A stretch of DNA of 61,183 nucleotides, counting the filler, from Rhabdomonas costata (taxonomy: Eukaryota), in NCBI GenBank assembly GCA_019059605.1. It is 16 parts of 16 records of this genome, joined end to end, with 100 filler letters (N's around TTAATTAATTAA, not from the genome) between each part and the next. Parts side by side here need not be neighbours in the genome. Positions count along the whole stretch, not along the records: positions 42,219 to 45,936 come from JAHMHO010000579.1; 15 more parts are not named here. One strand, 5' to 3'. The notes under the pieces were generated by a model, which was not told the origin of the DNA, did no database searches, and worked only from the letters and a program-made list of their open reading frames with translations. Shown here piece after piece: positions 12,867 to 56,600 of the stretch. The position numbers were made by a program, and so were the translations under genes. Position 1 is the first letter of the stretch; every line of letters starts with the position of its first letter.

Positions 12867-12972
12867 TCAGTGTCGTGAGGGTTTTGCATCTTCTTTTACA
12901 GCACATTGCAAAAGGTTTTCGAACGCTTGCATTCGAGCTTGTGTGTCACATTGATGCACCCTGTTCTTCCAG

Positions 12973-15229
12973 GTTTCCGACGTTTTGTTCGCGATGCTCG
13001 ACGAGTCGGTCGTAGAGCAGTACTTAGTCTTGCTGTCGGATATATTCCTTCCCTGCTTTCGGAAGCAACGTAACTGGGGTGTGTCGCTGTTTGGTGTGGA
13101 CAAGTGTGCTTTGGCCTTTTCTGAGCTTCTAACGTCATTTTCTCTTGTCCTGCATTCTTCAGGGAAAGCGTTGCATTCCCAAGGAGAGGAATTTGTGGGC
13201 TTGGTAGCCAAATTTGCTGAAAACCTTGGAGAGCTGGTTCAGCAAAACCCACACATGATTGTCGTGCATCAGCCAGATGAAAAGCTCGTTGAAAGCCTTC
13301 CTGTGGGTGATGCCCAAGCCATACGGCGGCTGGGAAGCGATGTTGTTGCTCGGTTAGATGACATTGTGGAAAAATGGATTGGATCAGTTGACCAACTGCT
13401 CAAGTCTTTGCATGAAGCCCCAGTGGAGCCCCAAAACATTTCCGAAGAAACCGGGCCTTTAACCGAGCTGGACCAGGCAAAGGCCCAATTTCAGAGAGTA
13501 GACTCTGTTATACAACAGCTGTCTTCTCGCGGCTGCAAGGCTGTGACTGAAGTACTTTCGTCCACTCGTTCAAAGACAATCAAAAAATGGAAGCAGGTGG
13601 ACCCTCTGCTTCAGGAGGCTTTGACCGAAACCAAAGAAAACCTTAAATACCTGAGCACGCTGGAAAAGTACATGGATCCCCTGTACAACGGGACGCCGCT
13701 GCAGATCATGGAGATCTTGCCTGGACTTATGAACTGCATAAAGATGATCTTCATCATTGCGAAGTATTACTCGACTCCCGAAAGAATGACTGGGCTCTTC
13801 ATCAAGATAACGAACCAGCTGATCTGTAATTGCAAAGCCACATTGAAAGGACCCGGTTTGGGGAAGTTGTGGGACCAGAGTGGACCCAAGGAACTTCCGA
13901 CCTTGCTTCACAATCTGCGATCGTGCATCAAGCTGAACAACGTTTATCAGGAAGAGTACTTGAAGTGCAAAGAAAAGCTTGGGCAGCAGCAGTCAGGGAG
14001 GCAGTTCGATTTCAACGGCCTGCACATTTTCGGAAAGTTTGAGCTTTTCTGTAAGCGCATTCAGAAGCTGATTGACGTTTTCCTCACCATTCAGCAGTTC
14101 ACGACTTTGCAGAGCCACAATATCGACGGGATGGAGACCCTAATTCAGCAGTTTTTCGAACACGTTGAGGAACTTAAACGAAGGAGCTCAGACCTTCTGG
14201 ATTACACCAAACCTGCCTTTGACAAAGAGTACATCGAGTTCAACAAAAAGATCCAGGAGCTGGAGTCCTCACTTCAAGTCTTCATCAACTCCAGCTTCGA
14301 GAACATCACTAGCACAGAGAATGCCCTTTCTCTTTTGCGGAAGTTTCAGTCTATTCTGCAGCGGGAAAATCTCAAGTCTGACTTGGACAGCAAATACATG
14401 GTCATTTTTCACAACTACGGACTGGATCTGGAAAATGTGCAGAAAACCTACGAGAGGCAAAAGACCCATCCCCCGATGCTCCGCAACGCGCCACCGATTG
14501 CCGGAAGGATAACATGGGCTCGTCAGCTTTTGCGCCGTATCGAGGAGCCGATGAAGCAGTTTCTGCAAAACAAGGTTATCATGACCAATCAGAAAGAATC
14601 CAAGAAGATCATCAAAACTTACAACAGGGTTGCGAGTGCCTTTGTTGAGTATGAGCAACTTTGGCTCAATGCCTGGTCGAAATCTGTCATGAATACCCGG
14701 GAGGGTCTCAAAGCAACCTTGATTGTTCGTCAAGGCGAAAAGTTGTTTGTGAATTTTGACCCAGAGATTTTGCTGCTGATTTGTGAAGCGAAATGGATGC
14801 AGAGAATGGGTATTGATATTCCTCCTGCCGCCGCCTCCGTTTTGATGCAGGAAGCCAAATTCAAGCGTTTCAATGCGGAACTCACGTACACGCTGAAAGA
14901 ATACGAACGCGTGTTTTCCAAAATGGTCCCCATCACGAAAGGGCTGATGCAGCAGAGTGTCGATGAGCTTGACAGCCTTATTCGTCCCGGTGAGACTGTT
15001 TTGACGTGGACGTCGATGAACATCGATGGTTATCTCGCAAAGGTACACAAGGGTTTGCAGAAACTGGACGATCTGGTGACGCGCGTGAACAGCATCGTGG
15101 AAAATCGAATTCAACATAATTTGAAGCTGATCAGCCGAACCTTGCTGGTGAATCTTCCTGATAATCAAGCATTTTCGCTCGAGCAGTTTGTGTCCCTTCA
15201 GGAAAAGCTCATAAAGCAGCAAACCACAA
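12973..15229 (+). CDS. DNAH5: Axonemal outer-arm dynein heavy chain, DNAH5/DNAH8/Chlamydomonas gamma type; N-terminal tail (DHC_N1) exon, partial
   Basis: Uninterrupted ORF from a ttcttccag| acceptor. Motifs ETGPLTEL, KYLSTLEKYMDPLY, YYSTPERMTGLFIKITNQLI, PPIAGRITWARQLLRRIEEPM and LTWTSMNIDGY are typical of DNAH5-type DHC_N1. Runs off the contig end. Confidence 0.9.
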
Positions 15230-15329
15230 NNNNNNNNNNNNNNNNNNNNNNNNNNNNNNNNNNNNNNNNNNNNTTAATTAATTAANNNNNNNNNNNNNNN
15301 NNNNNNNNNNNNNNNNNNNNNNNNNNNNN

Positions 15330-42373: not shown

Positions 42374-44639
42374 CTACTTCCTCACCCACAGCACGGCCAA
42401 GGGGTGCAGGGCGTGCGTCTCCGCGCTGACGATCTCGAGGTACTCCACCTCTTCCACGGGGGCGACCTGGAACGCGTACCGCGTCGCCACCCCCGCCACA
42501 TGGGTGTCCACCGCCCCGTTGAACAGCGGCTTCCCAAAGAACTTCGAGAAGCCGTACATGTCGCGTGGATCGGCGTACGCCCTGGCTCGGGTGACGGGGT
42601 AGGCCAGCCCCACCGCCGCCGCGAAAAGAATCACGGGCCAGCACCCCTCCGCGTTCTTCGGCCTTGGCCCTATCTCGCCGAGCTCCCCGCTGGCATACAT
42701 CGCGGCGTACTCCAGGCTGGGGGTTGTGTAGCAGCCATACCTGATGGACAATTAAATCCAAAACGGAAAAACACGAGCGGTGAAAGGTGAATACAAGCCC
42801 CCTACAAAATTAGGCTCGATGGTGGAAAACAAGGCAAAAAGGAAAGAAGAAGGAAGAATGGAAGCAACACAGTTTCAACCGTAGAACTCGCAGCTTCCCA
42901 TGAGAATCGGAAATGGGAGAGGCTCGAGGAGATGGAAGAACGCGGACTTCGACACGGTTTTTTATACAGGGATTATTCTCTGGTTCTGTCTGTCTGTCTC
43001 TCTCTTTCTCTCTCTCTCTCTCATCATTGCACGCTTTCTTTCATTACCCGAAATAGCCCTCGTCCTGCCGACAGAACTTCTGCAGCCCCGCGCAGAGGAT
43101 GTGCTCCAAACCGTCCACCCCAGTGCCGTGGAAGGTCAGCAGGACGTTCGACTGGCGATTGTGGGTCACAAACATTCCCTTCAGCTCGCCCACAATCCGT
43201 AGCATTTCCGTGTCCTCGCTCACCGCGGTCTCGGCTTGCATCACCTCCCGCGTCTTGGTCGACCGAAGATTGTCGAGTAATCCCAGGCGTGCCTGTAGGG
43301 CCTGAAGCGTCGCGGCGCTGCGGTCGACGATATCAATTCGGTGCACTTGGAACCCCGCGACCGGCCTTCCCACCAAACCGCTGCGATAGGAACCACGGCT
43401 GGCCATCAGCTCCTCCACCAGCTTCTTAACATCCGCAGGGCAATCCGGAGATTGCATCAAAAAGCTTGGGCGGGGGCCCATACCGAAGGGCGGAAAACGG
43501 GCAATGTTCCACGAGTATGGGGCCAGGGGGTCGAAAAGGCTGGTCTGCAGGGTGGTGATCTGCTCCCGGAGCCGTGAGACAACGGTATTCGCCGAAGAAA
43601 GTTCCGTGCGCAGCCGATCGTTGTCTGAGCGTAGCTCCTCGACACTCCCAACTGAAACAGAGAGCTCTGAGGCAACTTCAGATGATGTTCCACTGCCAGG
43701 GGGCGGGGTGAAGACCTCACAACGGGGAGAACCACTGGTGCGGTGCCAAAAGTTACACAAGTCGACCTCTCGTATCCTCCCCCCAAACACAAAAACACGC
43801 CCGTCAAGGGCAACAGCGCAGGCATCCCAACGACTGTTGCACATTGCCCTGGGGAGCATAGTGAACGTTTTGTTGCTGGGGTCGAACTCTTCGCAACTGG
43901 AGAGGATGGATTCATCGGAAGCAGCGGTCTTGCCCCCAAGGACGAAAATGCGGCCCCTATGGGCGACTGCACAGGCCCCCCAGCGCTTGCTGAGCATTGG
44001 TCTGGGAAGCATTGTGAAAGCTTTGGAGATCGGGTCGAACACTTCACAGTTGGAGAGGTACGTGCAGCGGTCAAAAAATCCCTCCCGGAGAGATTCGAAC
44101 CTGCTGCTGTCTGCCCCCCCATACAGGAAAATTCGGCCGTCATTATGGGCGGCGCCACAGGCACGGAACCGAGGGGTGCACATCGGCCTGGGAAGAATCG
44201 TGAAGGTTTCGCTGCGGGAGTCAAACACTTCGCAACTGGAGTGGGACGTGCTGCCGCCGTACCCACCAAACACAAAAATCCGGTCTCCCAGGGCGACCGC
44301 GCAGGCACCCCAGCGCTTGATGGACATCTCACACTCCAGCATTCGGAACGTGTTGGTACTGGGACTGAACACTTCGCAGCTGGAGAGGGCAGCGTTGCCG
44401 TCATGCCCTCCGAACAGAAAAATCTGGTCTCCACAGGCGGCCGCACAGGCGCCGTCGCGCCTGCTGCGCATCGCGTTGGGGAGCATCGTGAAGGTGTGGT
44501 TGCTGGGATCGAAGACTTCGCTGGTGGAGTGGGTTTCAAAGTTGTGTCCCCCAAAAACAAAAATTCGTCCTCCATGAGCGACGGCACAGGCGCCGGCGCG
44601 TCTGTCGCGGAGTTCTGCGTGGAGTGAAGAAAAGCTCAT
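42374..44639 (-). CDS. Kelch beta-propeller (6 repeats) / coiled coil / PARP-like ADP-ribosyltransferase protein, 652 aa; exons 43048-44639 and 42374-42740
   Basis: Six R.GAC.V...RIFVFGG...CEVFDP repeats, a coiled coil (EELRSDNDRLRTELSSANTVVSRLREQITTLQ), then FHGT...EGYFG|YGCYTTPSLEYAAMY...YLEIV. A 307-nt phase-2 GT-AG intron (42741-43047) restores the GYFGxGxY motif. A pyrimidine tract and AG precede the ATG. Confidence 0.85.
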
Positions 44640-44900
44640 TGTAAGGGTAGATTTCGGCGCTGAAAGGGCAACGCCCACAAAAAAAAAGCAGCCTGTGAGA
44701 AAAAAGGAGATGGCGAAGGAAGCGACAGGTGTGCGGGTAGTGGGACAATTTGCGTAAGCTCTCCGGCAGGGAGCATTCAGGGGTCGAGCCACCGATCTCC
44801 AATACGGGAGACACTTGTATTTTATTTTGCGTGTGTGTATGTGTGTGTGTGTGTGGGGGGGCGTCAAACGGACCGGCCACGCAGCGTTTCGGGAGGCCTG

Positions 44901-44943: not shown

Positions 44944-46173
44944 CTTGGTTCATTCAGGAACGTTTTACATGGCTAAATATCCGAACCGGACACATTTTTG
45001 GGATGTTGCTGTTAGGGATTTCGTAAACAGCAACAACTATCAAATGCATTTACTTTTATTATGACAAATGGGGTTAGGTATGCTGTTTTTTTACCTCTAC
45101 AAAGACATTATTTAATTTGTGGGGGGTTACGAAATTAATGACCGTTTCGCAGTGCTAAACGTTTACCCCCCCCCCCTCAGTACAATATTGAACAGCGACA
45201 GAAAAGTTCTACAGGTTCAAGAAACGAAGCAGGCGATGGGAGGGGTTACCGGGAAAACCCCCATTAGGGAGTGGGGTGGGAGGTTGGGCCCCATCATTCC
45301 TTCCGAGACATGTGAATTGCGTGTGTATGATTGCGAAACGCTGAAGTGCTGCTGAATCTTTCTTAAATCATAGCAGAGCTTCTGGGACAGAGGCCAGCAC
45401 TGCGATCTGAGCGTCATGCACGTACAAAAGGAGTGTCAGGTCAGCAGGACAAAAGTGAACTCTCCATCAGCCAAAGTTTCTCTGTGTTTAGGAAGGGGAC
45501 CGAGTTGGTATTTGGGCCCGGAGTCGCTGGGTCGGCACTCGCTACGTCGGCACCCTGACGTGACCCCAACCCCGGAGCGCGGCTTCTCCCAGCCCAGTCG
45601 GAGGCTGAGGCGTCCACTGTCCCCGTTCTTTTTCAGGGACTCCACCGATGCTGCTCCCATGACAGCTCCCTGTCTGGTGGTTTTCATGAGCGACGAAGAA
45701 GGCGTGCACTCCGCGGGCAAACCTTTGCAGACCTTTACCAAACAACTGCCCTCGGAGGCGTGCACTCTGCAACCATACACAGACTACCCCCAAGGAAGGC
45801 GCGTCCTGGCCCGCTCGCAGAACATGGGCGTGTGCTGTGCGGGGCTCGGGACCGAGAGAGATCCAAGGCGGTTCACAACCGCTCGACCCACACAGACTAC
45901 CTAGCATATTCACCCTGAGGGCGTGTACCCAACAAANNNNNNNNNNNNNNNNNNNNNNNNNNNNNNNNNNNNNNNNNNNNTTAATTAATTAANNNNNNNN
46001 NNNNNNNNNNNNNNNNNNNNNNNNNNNNNNNNNNNNTTTTTTGGTGGGAGCACTGCGCTCCAATCACCGGCATTGCTGTTCGGTTCCCGTAGTTCAATGT
46101 CGTGATTTTGTAGCGTGCTTCTTGGAGGGTTGGGTGTGTTGGGAGTGTTTGCCTGGTCGGTGGGTGACGACAG

Positions 46174-48688
46174 GATGGGGGACATCATCCTCGCGGTGAA
46201 CCCATTCCAGAGGATGGAGTACAACGATCCCAAGCACATGCCTGAGTACTTCGACGAGAGCAATGGAGCCCCCCACTGCTGGCAAGTGGCCCATGATGCC
46301 TTCCGGAACATTGTGATTCGGGTATCCCGTCTCTCTCTGTCACCCCGCACCTCGCACTTCCCATCTCAGAGCCTGTAAAACCTGACCCGTGCTTCGGTTT
46401 AAGATTTGAAGGGTCTCACGAAAGGCGACATTAGTCCCAAGGAATACCTTGGTGTTAAACTCGCCGGGGTCGAAACCCCAGTCACTCTAGTTAGTCAGCT
46501 GCTTACCTCAGAGTTTACCCCTGTGATACTGATGTTCCGACACATTCTCTTCATTTGTGCTTTTCCCCTCGTGACTCGAAGCTAGGGTCTCTTCATTCTG
46601 TTTGTCACCGTGTTGTTACCTTGTGAAGGTCCGGTGCACATACGGGAGTAGCACAGAAGAAATGCTCTTCTTCTTTTTTGTAGTGCGCAGGGAAGGAAAG
46701 AAAGAAACGTCCTGCTTTGGATCTTCCAGTAGCGGGTTATCGGGTCAATGGCAGTGTCGATGACAGTTTTGCGTCACTCCTATTCGCCTATTTGGCCCGC
46801 CATCCATTCGCGGTTGCCTAGCCACTACGGTGTGCTGGGTTGCATCTCCCCGTGGTTCCTGCCATTATTCGCACAGGACCTGAACAATCAGTCCATTCTC
46901 ATCAGCGGAGAAAGTGGAGCTGGAAAGACTGGTGTGTTCTCCAAACTTTTCCTCTCCGCCTCCCCACCCTCAATAACATGGATTAACATGGAATAACATG
47001 GATTAACTCGGCATTTTTTGTGTGAAGAAAAAATGGATCATTAAGAGATGGATGAAGAAGTGGCCACCTCCGGACCAAACTTCAGACTACTGAGAGAGTG
47101 GAAACAATGGAACAAAAAATGGATCGTCCCCGCTGATCCATTGATCCATTGTGTATTTGTACCCAAATTTGCGCTCAAATTTGAACCTTGAACCTTGAAC
47201 CTTGAACCTTGAACCTTGAACCTTGAACCTTGAACCTTGAACCTTGAACCTAACCTTTATCCCCTTATTCAATGGTAAGATTGAACTTTGGACTGGTCAT
47301 AATGAAATTTTCATAATTGAACTTTGAAATTGAACTTTGAGGTTGGTCGAGCTCGAAACCCTGCAGATGATTCAGTTATGAAATACCGCTCGACCCCATA
47401 ATCGTGTCCATTATTCAATCAGGTCTCGCTGGTGACCGAAAAGTTTGTGTTTTTTTATGCAAACTCGGATCTCTGATTCTGTGCCTTCGACGGGGGTGGT
47501 GTGGTTCTTTGCGTATTGTCCCGTCCCGGTCCCGGTCCCGGTCCCGCTTCCGGTCCACGCAGTGATGCTCGTTTTTGTTTGCGCTCTGCAGAGACGACCA
47601 AGATGCTGATGGACTATCTCGGTGTGAACCGCTCTTCTTGTATTTTTCTGAGGCTGTTGATTATGCAGTCTCAACCCTCCCTCAGCTTTTGGTCGATCAT
47701 GCCAGCGCTTCAGCCGTCTATCTTTGGAAGCCACTTCGTGTTGTCGAGCACCCTTCGATCACAAGGGTCACCCCGGATTTAAACTCTCGGCACTTGCATG
47801 TTGGTGGGTGCGATTTTCCTGTTGGAGTTCGTTTTGGGACTGCTACTACTTTTCACACCCATCCGCTACATGGCATGTAACGGGAATAATCAATGGGTTT
47901 GTTTTTCACAAGATTTTTTGATTTAATTAATTTTTTTTTGCAAATTTTTTTTTTTGCATTTTTGCATTTTTTTGCAGGGGCCTTCTCGCAGCACAACTCG
48001 CGGCACCCCATGCAGCAGGAGACTTGCGCCAGGGTGGCGCAGAAGCTGCGCGACTCCAACCCCATCCTGGAGAGCTTCGGGAACGCCAAGACCGTCCGCA
48101 ATGACAACAGCTCCCGCTTCGGGAAGTACATCAAGGTCATTGTCCACCCTGCTCTCCCTCCAGCATCCGCCGTTCATTGGGGTTTCAACAACCTCAAAGC
48201 TCTCAGCCATCCGCACCAGCGCCTATTGCAAGCCCCACCTTTCCTAGTATCCCGTTCACGTCGCCCGCCGCGCCTCCAATTCTCCTCCAATATTCGCGCC
48301 TCGCCTCCAATATTCTATGACCACTTCGCTCACCTCTATTTCTGCGCCACGAACCCGCGCGGCCAAGCGTAGGTATTTCCGCTCAAAAATCCCCCGAAGC
48401 TCAAACAAAAAAAGCACCGGCATGTGGTTGCTCGTGAGCGCCGTGTTTATAACGGGAAATTTGTGATGCTTCAAGAAAGCTTCTGATACTTTCTTTCCAC
48501 ATATAGATCGGGAAAGTTCGACTAGAATTTTGTGCCGAGACTTTTTCCCACCTCCTTCGTCATTTTTCTTGGTTGGAATAATCGCCTCGTTTCTCCCTTC
48601 ATAGCTTCACCTTGAGGCAAGGTCGGGTGTGATTGTTGGCGCCGAGATGGTGACCTATCTCTTGGAGAAGAGTCGAATCAGCGTCCAG
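46174..48688 (+). CDS. Myosin motor domain (resembles kinetoplastid myosin XXI/Myo13), exons 46174-46321, 46877-46931, 47592-47621, 47978-48135, 48605-48688; partial
   Basis: [52 protein letters not shown]|..[27 protein letters not shown]|..[13 protein letters not shown]-loop and switch I are intact and all GT-AG phases are consistent. Confidence 0.92.
47181..47250. repeat. (TTGAACC)10 tandem repeat in a myosin intron
   Basis: Ten perfect 7-mers, with degenerate TTGAACT copies downstream to ~47340. Confidence 0.95.
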
Positions 48689-53660: not shown

Positions 53661-56600
53661 CAACCCCCTGCGATGTTCAGGAATGAAACGCGGGCTCTTC
53701 TGAACCACTACAACAGGTTGATGTTCAAAGCCATTCTTACCACGACGACCAAATCGCTCAATTTGATCAAGAAAAGGGTGGGAACGCGCAATCGCAAAGG
53801 TTTCATGTTTGTGGATCGACCTTTTTTCGACGTGAACGTTGAGCTCCATGTTCCGAATGTGCTATTAAATCCAAGTCTGGATGAAGTTCAGAACGCCATC
53901 AACCGTTGTGCCACGGCTGTTTTGCGGTGCTCAAAATTTATCGGAGCTTGGTCCGAGGTCGAGGGCGTTGGTTCCTCTGGCTTTTTTGAGGAGGTCGCTC
54001 GGAATAAAGAGATCGTCAAAGTTGTGCTTCTACTTACGGGAGGTATACATGGGCTGAAGAAGCAGGTTCTTGATTACTTGAATTCGTTCAAGCGCTACGA
54101 GTATCTGTGGGTCAAGGACAAGCAGGAGGCGTATGAGGAGTTTGTTTCGGGTAATCCCACTCTTGAAGATTTTGAGAACGAGCTGAAGAAGTGCATGACT
54201 GTTGAACAAGAAATCCTGTCGATCACCCCGTGCTATACAATTGGTTCACTCTCTTTGGACACTTCCATCTTGAAGCAGGCTTTGCGCAACGAAGCGCAAT
54301 TATGGAAGCAGCAGTATGCGCGCAACCTTCACGCACAAGCGCAAAAACAAATGGAAAAGATCTTCTTTGACATGGAAGAGGCTGGTCGCAAATTATCCAC
54401 AGAGATCAGCAATAACCTGCAAGACTTAAGAGTTGTGATGGACACATTGCGCGAGATCCGAGATCATGAGTCTGAAATCGATTTTCAGTTTGGTCCTGTT
54501 GGAGAAATGTATCAGCTGTTGCACCGGTACGACGTGGCTATTCCCAAAGAAGAATTCGACCGAGTCAGTGAGATGCGGTACAAATGGAGAAAGCGCAAGC
54601 AAGTTGCCAACGAGCGCAGTGATGAAATCAGCAGTCGGTTGCAGTTTCGTTTCAAGCGGGAGCTTATTCACGCAGTTCACCGCTTTGGTGTGGATGTCGT
54701 GGCCTTTCGCAATGATTTTGAAGCGAATGGTCCGATGGTGGAAGGCATCAAGCCCCAGGAAGCGATGGAGCGGCTCAAAAAATACCAAAGACTTTTCGAC
54801 GACAAGGAGAGGAAATGGGACACTCTTTTGGCTGGTGAGCAGTTGGACTTCCGGAGCACCGCTACCCTGAGCTAACGAAAACCAAGAAAGAGCTCCAGCT
54901 GCTTGAGAAGTTGTATTCCCTCTACATCACAGTCTGGCAAAAAATCAACGATACGCGGACATTCTGTGGAGTGAGCTTGACTTCAAGGCCATCACGGAAG
55001 AAGTCCTGGTTTTCCAGAATCAGTGCAAGCGAATGCCAAAGCAGCTTCGAAACTGGGATGCTTACCTTGAATTGAGAAAAACCGTGGATGATTTCCTTGA
55101 GCTGCAGCCCCTTCTGGAGCAGTTATCTCAGAACACGCTTCGCGAGCGACACTGGAAAGAGATCATGAGAATCACTGGGGTGAGCTGGAGGTTGGACCCC
55201 GACATGTTTCGTCTGGGGAATCTCTTGGCAGCGAATCTACTGTGCTTCAAGGAGGACATCGAGGACATTGCTGTGTCGAGCGTCAAGGAAGTGGACATTG
55301 AAAACAAAAAGAACGCCATTGCAGCCGACTGGGAAGACCGTGAACTTACCTTCGCCGAGTTTAGGCACCGAGGCCCCATTATTTTGAAAGGGGATGAGAC
55401 AGCCGCTGTCAAGGAGCATCTGGAGGAGTCCCAACTGGCTTTGGGTTCTATGTTGGCCTCCAGATATGTCGCCCCGTTTCGAGAGGAGGTGAACGGCTGG
55501 CTGGCCAAGCTTTCGAGCGTTTCTGAGATTCTTGCATTGTGGCTGGATGTGCAGTCCACGTGGATTTACCTGGAAGCAGTTTTTGCGGGAGGAGACATCA
55601 TGAAGCAGCTCCCCGCGGAGGCCAAAAGGTTTGGGCAGATTGACAAGCAGTGGGTGAAGATAATGAGCAAAGCATTTGAAGTGAAGAATGTGGTCGGGTT
55701 TTGCTACAACAACGAGCTTCTCAACGCCTTGCCGTTTTTGCGAGACCAACTGGAGCTTTGTCAGCGGCAGCTTACGGCGTATCTTGAGCAGAAAAGAAAT
55801 TGCTTTCCCCGGTTCTACTTTGTCTCAGACGGTGTTCTGCTGGAGATTCTTTCCCAGAGTTCTGATCCTCAGGCTATCCAACCCCACTTGGTGTCTATCT
55901 TCGACGGACTGGCTCAAATCACTTTTGAGAAGGGGCGCGGGCTGGAGAAGGGTTCCACCAACATCACAACAATGACATCTCCTGAGGCTGAAGAAGTGAA
56001 GCTGTGTGAGGAAGTTCTGGCTCAGGGAAATGTCGAGGAATGGCTGGAAAAGCTAGAGCACCAGATGTGTCGCACCGTTCTGTCCAGAATTCGGGATGCT
56101 GCCGTGGAAATAGCCGCAATGGAAACCAGCCTTGGCAAGCTGAGGCGCTTCATTGAGGTGTTTCCCGCGCAAGTCGCTCTTCTCGGGCTACAGCTGATTT
56201 GGACGCATGACGTTCAGGCAGCTCTGAGTGCCTCCAAAGCCGAACAGAAAAAGGCCGTGGCAGATTGCACAAAGAGGATCGGTGAAATAAAAAAGGAACT
56301 CACGGAGTTCACCAACTCAGAACTTTCTGCTCAGAAGCGTATCAATATTGAGACTTTGATCACAATCCAGGTATTGCTTCCCCCATTTTTGCACACACTG
56401 AGAAAGCATTATTAATGTTTGCTGCTTATTGGTATTGTTGCGTCAGAATTTTTTTTACACCTTTTTTTTTGCCCGATTCAGGTTCACCAACAAGAAGTTT
56501 GGGAGGCTTCGGTGAAGCGAGTCCGCGATCCTACCTCCTTTGAATGGCAGAAACAAGTTCGCTTCTACTGGAGACCAGAACGCGACTGCTGCATCATCTG

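Follow-up and report, generated by a model that had tools for sequence, protein, structure and literature searches.

A spliced gene from the Rhabdomonas costata assembly joins a kelch propeller and a coiled coil to a divergent PARP-type ADP-ribosyltransferase domain

The enzymes of the PARP/ARTD family (tankyrase 1/2, PARP10, PARP15 and PARP1-4) carry an ADP-ribosyltransferase (ART) domain with HG[ST] and G-x-Y motifs, a second tyrosine and a glutamate at their C-terminus, and tankyrase, for example, is laid out in the order ankyrin-SAM-ART. More than 100 PARP types are noted in the accessible part of Perina et al. 2014, and a new fusion on its own would thus be a modest surprise. A lysine at the position of PARP1 Lys903 is linked to poly-activity, and a leucine or tyrosine there to mono-ADP-ribosylation, in the accessible part of PMC7955679. 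Among kelch proteins, the ligand residues of Keap1 are spaced by 17 (363/380, 508/525 and 555/572) and by 5 residues (525/530 and 572/577), according to the accessible part of PMC12266349. The fungal HNWD/NLR-like proteins (Podospora HET-E family) are non-self receptors with four selected positions per repeat, and the high-conservation repeats of fungi are held to a criterion of 85 % identity (accessible part of PMC4986451).

A gene combining features of these systems was found in a window of 61,183 nucleotides, which is the whole stretch of DNA that was analysed and consists of unrelated contig parts of about 3.7 kb each, separated by N spacers. The gene lies on the minus strand, wholly within one contig part (42219-45936), and its neighbours in the window are uninformative for it. 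The assembly surveyed comprises 97 Mb in 104,289 contigs and is that of Rhabdomonas costata, a free-living osmotrophic euglenid. Other contigs of the window (12955-15282, 53661-56412 and 46100-48400) hold dynein heavy-chain exons, as identified by Pfam, and myosin-motor-like exons recognised by eye, which are unrelated to this gene. The spliced product of the two exons has 652 amino acids, and its features are collected in Table 1.

Table 1. Features of the kelch-ART gene in window coordinates, with residues numbered along the spliced product
Feature	Position	Strand	Description
Exon 1	43048..44639	-	ATG at 44639; 1592 nt = 530 codons + 2 nt of Gly531; kelch propeller, coiled coil and first ART half
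Intron	42741..43047	-	307 nt, GT-AG, phase 2, splits the Gly531 codon; position common to paralogs
Exon 2	42374..42740	-	second ART half; ends with a TAG stop
Six-bladed kelch beta-propeller	43707..44639	-	residues 1-311; variable sites R+1, GG+1, GG+5 and GG+6 in each blade
Long helix	43536..43685	-	residues 319-368, of which 333-368 are predicted to pair as a parallel, in-register coiled-coil dimer
ART domain, exon-1 half	43048..43469	-	residues ~391-531; His504 at 43130-43128; DxGYFG loop
ART domain, exon-2 half	42374..42740	-	Tyr535 (42730-42728), Tyr542, Tyr546, Asp609, His611, Glu633 (42436-42434)

The initial annotation had proposed that a single intron, joined at 43048/42740, links six kelch repeats and a coiled coil to a C-terminal ART domain, and the splice is borne out by several observations. 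The spliced junction is carried by the EukProt protein P0003, which is named Rhabdomonas costata and reads DEGYFGYGCYTT across the join, and all 121 residues of exon 2 are identical in this protein. P0003 differs from the window at three places in its first 154 residues, which are in another frame, and at one kelch position (N256S), while a shift of frame within a run of G near 44120 leaves its first 151 residues garbled. These differences indicate that P0003 is an independent sequence, not one predicted from this contig. Both ends of the intron occur on seven contigs of the genome, with lengths of 219-492 nt and in the same phase, and across 32 loci examined (some duplicates) the distinct donors are GT in ten of ten cases and the distinct acceptors AG in ten of ten. 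Splicing improves the PF00644 E-value from 0.19 for the exon-1 part to 1.7e-4 for the spliced domain, and the intron has a GC content of 0.45 as against 0.59 and 0.67 in the exons. The paralogs share an MSF-type N-terminus with this gene, and a crude hydropathy scan of the protein showed neither a signal peptide nor a hydrophobic N-terminus. The observation of a real spliced gene, probably from the free-living euglenid, is confirmed. Two pyrimidine tracts ending in CAG precede the start codon by 20 and 54 nt (window 44660-44712, minus strand) and are candidate acceptors for trans-splicing or for a 5' UTR intron.

The proposed domain order also held, with support from Pfam, AlphaFold and a two-copy fold. 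Six Kelch_1 stretches are recognised by Pfam (E 5e-56), the AlphaFold model of the propeller has a pLDDT of 89, and its six GG-bearing blades form a closed propeller, as in the kelch repeat family (PF01344). For most of the Foldseek rows listed, the propeller superposes on SAKe6 and on the KLHL3/12/17/20 and Keap1 kelch domains at an rmsd of 1.0-2.5 A. The natural domains among these superpose at 1.3-2.2 A, while the designed symmetric SAKe6 proteins are the best structural matches because the blades are ~60 % alike, a trait that sets this propeller apart from those of KLHL proteins and Keap1. It differs from them further in being N-terminal and joined to an enzyme; the protein begins with the propeller, and no BTB or BACK match was obtained with Pfam at E <=1. 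For the helix that follows, folding two copies gave a score of 0.35, against 0.01 for the best of three controls, with run agreement of at least 68 % and pLDDT of at least 74. This is barely above the mark of 0.32, which was reached by 17/29 eukaryotic pairs and 0/30 single chains, and by only one of seven pairs without an older solved relative. The model thus leans towards a helix that pairs two chains, although any amphipathic helix may pair in this way. The order of repeat domain, oligomeriser and ART would parallel that of tankyrase.

The FHGT, GYFGYGCYTT, AAMY and YLEIV motifs lie where the initial annotation had placed them, and the C-terminal domain in which it had read an H-Y-E triad folds as an ART in AlphaFold, Foldseek and VIA comparisons. 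The model of residues 391-652 (pLDDT 92, pTM 0.90) has a Foldseek E-value of 8e-9, and PARP-family domains fill the first 17 rows of its VIA comparison (Z 11-16). Tankyrase 2 is aligned over 188 residues at Z 16.0 and an rmsd of 3.4 A, followed by PARP10 (Z 15.4), PARP15 (15.0) and PARP1 (14.8), and the described PARP/ARTD enzymes as a group share the fold at Z 14-16 over 168-191 aligned residues. The domain had been assigned to a combined diphtheria-toxin-like/PARP class, of which the PARP part stands and the diphtheria-toxin-like part does not, with a VIA Z of only 7.1 to diphtheria toxin. The H-Y-E triad and the ART core are shared with diphtheria-toxin-like toxins, but no secretion signal or translocation part was seen and the present gene is a nuclear, spliced one. 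As to GIG2-like antiviral ARTs, none of the searches returned a GIG2 profile or structure. A search of PDB sequences gave non-significant matches to PARP15 and to macrodomains (E >=0.19), the latter being rejected after the fold searches.

Several features nevertheless distinguish this domain from the described PARP/ARTD enzymes, to which it is only 14-20 % identical. It has an alanine for the usual serine, a tyrosine for Lys903 and the motifs DxGxFG, EYA, YPxT and DxH of its own subfamily, while kelch and coiled coil take the place of ankyrin, SAM, macro, WWE and WGR domains. Pfam analysis of the 652 residues found only kelch, a weak coiled coil and PARP, and none of the partner domains of PARP clades 1-6 (WGR/regulatory, ankyrin-SAM, VIT-vWA, macro, WWE and CCCH). 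The spliced ART scores 21.6 bits against PF00644, below the curated gathering cut-off of 26.7, though many of its relatives exceed this cut-off and 63/69 aligned members of the subfamily match the profile at E <=0.05. It belongs to a divergent subfamily of the PARP fold and not to the curated PF00644 set.

The residues expected of an enzyme are well conserved among the aligned relatives, with His504 retained in 130/141, Gly505 in 139/141, Tyr535 in 146/149, Tyr546 in 139/150 and Glu633 in 133/135, and the triad H504-Y535-E633 is intact in 117 of the 131 relatives that cover all three columns. Residues particular to the subfamily lie beside the catalytic strands, namely Asp609 (124/142), His611 (135/142) and Tyr578-Pro579. 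At the PARP1 Lys903 position the domain has not the lysine of polymerases but Tyr542, which is kept in 144/150 aligned relatives and, in the PDB sequence-search alignment, aligns with a tyrosine of the mono-ART PARP15; the genome's own PARP1-like gene (L033) has a lysine at the equivalent position. A tyrosine at this site suggests mono-ADP-ribosylation. On these residue patterns the domain is likely to be catalytically active, and its activity would probably consist of mono- rather than poly-ADP-ribosylation. That the protein is a scaffold lacking catalysis, or else a poly-ADP-ribose polymerase from one of the known PARP clades, is very improbable; the score below the PF00644 cut-off and the presence of Glu633, as in polymerases, would suit such readings, but the triad and the NAD-site glycines are conserved across the subfamily, the Lys903 position holds a tyrosine, and Pfam detects no WGR, regulatory, ankyrin or SAM domain.

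The census of paralogs suggested by the initial annotation places the gene within a family of about 14 copies. Among the scored candidates on the genome contigs, 20/22 match the exon-1 half of the ART and 16/19 match exon 2; after merging of overlaps about 14 distinct exon-2 copies are obtained, with 75-84 % DNA identity to this gene, and all these counts are lower bounds. The equivalent of Glu633 is kept in all 14 distinct exon-2 copies that reach the site. On nine contigs, kelch blades continue into the coiled coil and the first part of the ART region, and one further locus (L071) has the coiled coil and ART start without kelch in open frame. Frame breaks occur in exon 2 of two copies (L012 and L028), much as would be seen in birth-and-death families. 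With the PF00644 profile, 26 further matches were found in the genome (L033-L058), none of them on the kelch-ART contigs. These include the PARP1-like gene, L034, which encodes WWE and PARP domains together with a macro-like N-terminus, and a set of H-Y-E PARPs that resemble one another (L035-L040, L042, L044 and L052). A more distant similar ART is encoded at L051:363-1853 (G000:C3951), with HQT for HGT and a PF00644 score of 33.9 bits; its N-terminal region appears receiver-like by eye, and Pfam names no such domain there.

The blades of the propellers are on average 61 % identical within genes and 58 % between genes, with very high variability at positions R+1, GG+1, GG+5 and GG+6. A codon analysis with in-house code, covering 35 codons in 54 of 57 blades (three were dropped as misaligned), yielded 2dL values of 28.0 for M8 against M8a and 31.6 for M2a against M1a, with omega of ~2.2 at R+1, GG+1 and GG+5 under M8. 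These three sites all lie at or beside the ligand face, while GG+6, the best Keap1-equivalent site, has an omega of ~1 in the full set. The ART, in comparison, is under purifying selection, with omega values of 0.15 and 0.14 for its two halves (2dL 0 and 3.8). In 69 null simulations, of which 47 included recombination, the maxima were 7.5, 22.2 and 22.2, all short of the comparable 33.9 from the real data, though negative null values reflect imperfect optimisation and these maxima may be underestimates. Using F61 frequencies lowers 2dL to 19.0 and half-samples yield 4.9-19.4, values that the worst recombination nulls also attain, in repeats that are short, recombining and fairly diverged; R+1, GG+1 and GG+5 recur in six of six half-samples. 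The seven closest blade pairs differ at ~90 % of the selected sites, as against 10-13 % elsewhere. For ten of 54 blades the nearest blade belongs to the same gene, where 3.5 would be expected, a pattern suggestive of a degree of within-gene homogenisation.

The spacing of R+1, GG+1 and GG+6 (17 and 5 residues) is that of the Keap1 ligand residues, onto which we take these blade sites to be in register. The propeller is likely to be a binding domain, with its ligand at the top face. The top-face residues of ordinary kelch proteins differ between blades too, and one burst of change after blade duplication, without an arms race, could leave the same signal. Such fixed differences would be expected of a housekeeping or signalling mono-ART family in which the propellers each bring in one unchanging host substrate (cytoskeleton, pellicle or turnover pathway), like the KLHL adaptors or tankyrase, and the variable sites changed once after duplication. 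This reading, which we regard as rather unlikely but the strongest of the alternatives, accords with the closest solved folds, which are substrate-recruiting KLHL kelch domains and tankyrase, with the strong purifying selection over most of the protein and with variable residues that are retained in some paralog pairs, some colinear blades of L063/L066 and of L018/L070 keeping the same residues at R+1 and GG+1. The almost invariable differences between the closest blades at the selected sites argue against it, as do the copy number, nucleotide identity and broken members of the family, and the nearest relative in the ART tree bears WD40 repeats, not kelch, which is not easily reconciled with a single conserved pathway.

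Like the HNWD proteins, the kelch-ART family is multi-copy, with an effector fused to propeller repeats that are alike save for a few surface positions, and positive selection was found at three sites per blade with omega of ~2, subject to the recombination caveat. In contrast to HNWD proteins, its effector is a PARP-type ART, the order is sensor, coiled coil and effector, blade identity (58-61 %) lies below the repeat criterion of >85 %, and Pfam finds neither NACHT nor NB-ARC in the complete protein of 652 residues. By the features tested, the kelch-ART proteins fall outside the KLHL, NLR, polymerase and diphtheria-toxin families. By analogy, they would work like a PARP-fold mono-ART with a KLHL-like propeller and evolve somewhat like an HNWD receptor.

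A profile search recovered 338 relatives of the ART at E <=0.001, including a protein of Mastigamoeba balamuthi, and the best 150 of these were analysed, with the best five Pfam families considered for each protein. Within this set the partners are WD40-type repeats (7), kinase (4), DUF4116 (3), SAM (3), NHL (2), ARM (2) and Roc-COR (2), with ankyrin, WWE, PH, RRM, vWA, F5/8, ricin-B and SPRY in single proteins; 61 of the 150 are shorter than 300 amino acids and may be fragments. In 118 of the 143 domains that are complete, no more than 15 residues separate the end of the ART from the C-terminus. It is thus a promiscuous module with many N-terminal partners, of which kelch represents one fusion among many. 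In a tree restricted to members of the ART subfamily, the genome's canonical PARPs being aligned over too few columns, the query falls in a clade of six proteins (support 0.99) that includes the WD40-bearing P0004, which indicates that propellers have been exchanged among close relatives.

The initial annotation knew of no characterised kelch-ART protein, and the combination of kelch and ART is not a common annotated family. Kelch was absent from all 150 relatives listed, both by Pfam and with a profile of the gene's own blades, and none of 45 kelch relatives has an ART of this subfamily. A word-based search with the exon-1 half of the ART returned P0003 alone (1/807 candidates), and no longer form of the protein was found among 7999 candidates, which is weak evidence. 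No description of a kelch-ART protein was found in the literature outside supplements and subscription papers, and an architecture list may mention the fusion. The word kelch does not occur in the main texts, as far as accessible, of the PARP surveys PMC4245714 and PMC2964712 (Perina 2014; Citarelli 2010) or of PMC9503650, nor in the main text of PMC7955679, and the accessible part of PMC4986451 contains none of kelch, PARP and ADP-ribos. In the EukProt protein P0157, the N-terminal 30 residues resemble the tail of a PARP domain (a hint of 26 residues). Behind them come a helical stretch, an Ig-like domain and six kelch blades that are homogeneous but variable at R+1, GG+1 and GG+6; the protein may be a separate fusion of kelch and PARP with the order inverted.

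None of 42 pattern matches to the ART in viral contigs was confirmed, and viral structures match it only as generic PARPs, at 11-14 % identity. One of ten pattern matches in prokaryote genomes passed (E 2e-4) and was rejected as an off-frame match within what is presumably, from its sequence, an outer-membrane assembly gene. PADLOC gave no match for P0003; of the four proteins submitted three were unmatched, and one had a WD40-driven match.

Genes of another eukaryote provide a parallel to the kelch-ART family, with several intronless genes encoding WD40 repeats, a helix and an ART of the same subfamily (L078:742-3657, L079:2207-4546, L080 and L081:222-2834). The WD40 repeats of L078 and L079 are 73 % identical and have four hypervariable positions, as in HNWD proteins; in the codon analysis the repeats reach a 2dL of 5.1, which is marginal. 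L079 and L080 represent one locus that differs between them in its number of repeats, either through polymorphism or through collapse in the assembly. An XPG gene adjoins the WD40-ART locus in this eukaryote (L078-L081).

The diversity of fusion partners bears on a different role for the propeller, that of a trigger whose ligand switches on the ART, leading to NAD+ hydrolysis or to modification of nucleic acid or a fixed host target, with growth stop or cell death as the outcome of a one-chain, NLR-like effector. Very different partners suit a fixed output of this kind, as do the subfamily's own conserved residues by the catalytic strands and the 6 SIR2_2 and 19 WWE matches in the same genome. 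Such a trigger is, however, improbable, since the fold is PARP-like and far from DarT (Z 4) and from the RES-type NAD-consuming toxins (Z 6-7), there is no NACHT or other switch domain and no sign of autoinhibition, and the SIR2_2 and WWE match lists share no contig, so that no WWE-SIR2 fusion was seen.

The reading preferred here, by a narrow balance, is that of a cytosolic and probably dimeric mono-ART with a diversifying recognition face, used in non-self defence. The protein would combine sensor and effector in one cytosolic enzyme, as a member of a euglenid family that has expanded. A ligand, most likely a protein or peptide, would be bound at the top face of the propeller, and the coiled coil would pair two chains. 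The PARP-type domain would then use NAD+ to place single ADP-ribose units either on the target held by the propeller, on the enzyme's own chain or on a host protein further downstream. The paralogs would keep one enzyme while varying the binding face through blade duplication, blade exchange and point changes at a few positions, which would provide a range of specificities like that of immune receptors. The conserved enzyme, the diversifying binding face and the birth-and-death family are best fitted by non-self defence, with viruses, endosymbionts or other invaders as conceivable targets; a defence role for the family is slightly favoured overall. The initial suggestion of a conflict or immunity module gains support from the selection on the propeller, as a putative role. 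More tentatively, and with less confidence than is placed in defence by this family, it may be conceived that protists have undescribed one-chain immune receptors in which a variable beta-propeller and a coiled coil precede a dedicated PARP-type ART. These would have arisen more than once (with kelch here, with WD40 in L078, L079 and P0004, and with NHL in P0026) and would diversify like HNWD proteins without a NACHT switch, and in euglenids they may write an ADP-ribose signal read by WWE- or macro-bearing SIR2 effectors.

To our knowledge, almost nothing is known of how free-living protists detect invaders, and the kelch-ART family is a testable candidate, in which a conserved enzyme that would use NAD is coupled to propellers varying at defined positions on their surface. 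The PARP-fold subfamily to which it belongs comprises at least 338 clusters with an unusually wide set of fused domains, many of these clusters falling below the Pfam cut-off and therefore being unannotated. Even if the propellers serve fixed housekeeping substrates, this would still be a new kelch-targeted ADP-ribosyltransferase. The interest of the family rests more on the selected propeller face, and on its repetition with WD40, than on the fusion itself.
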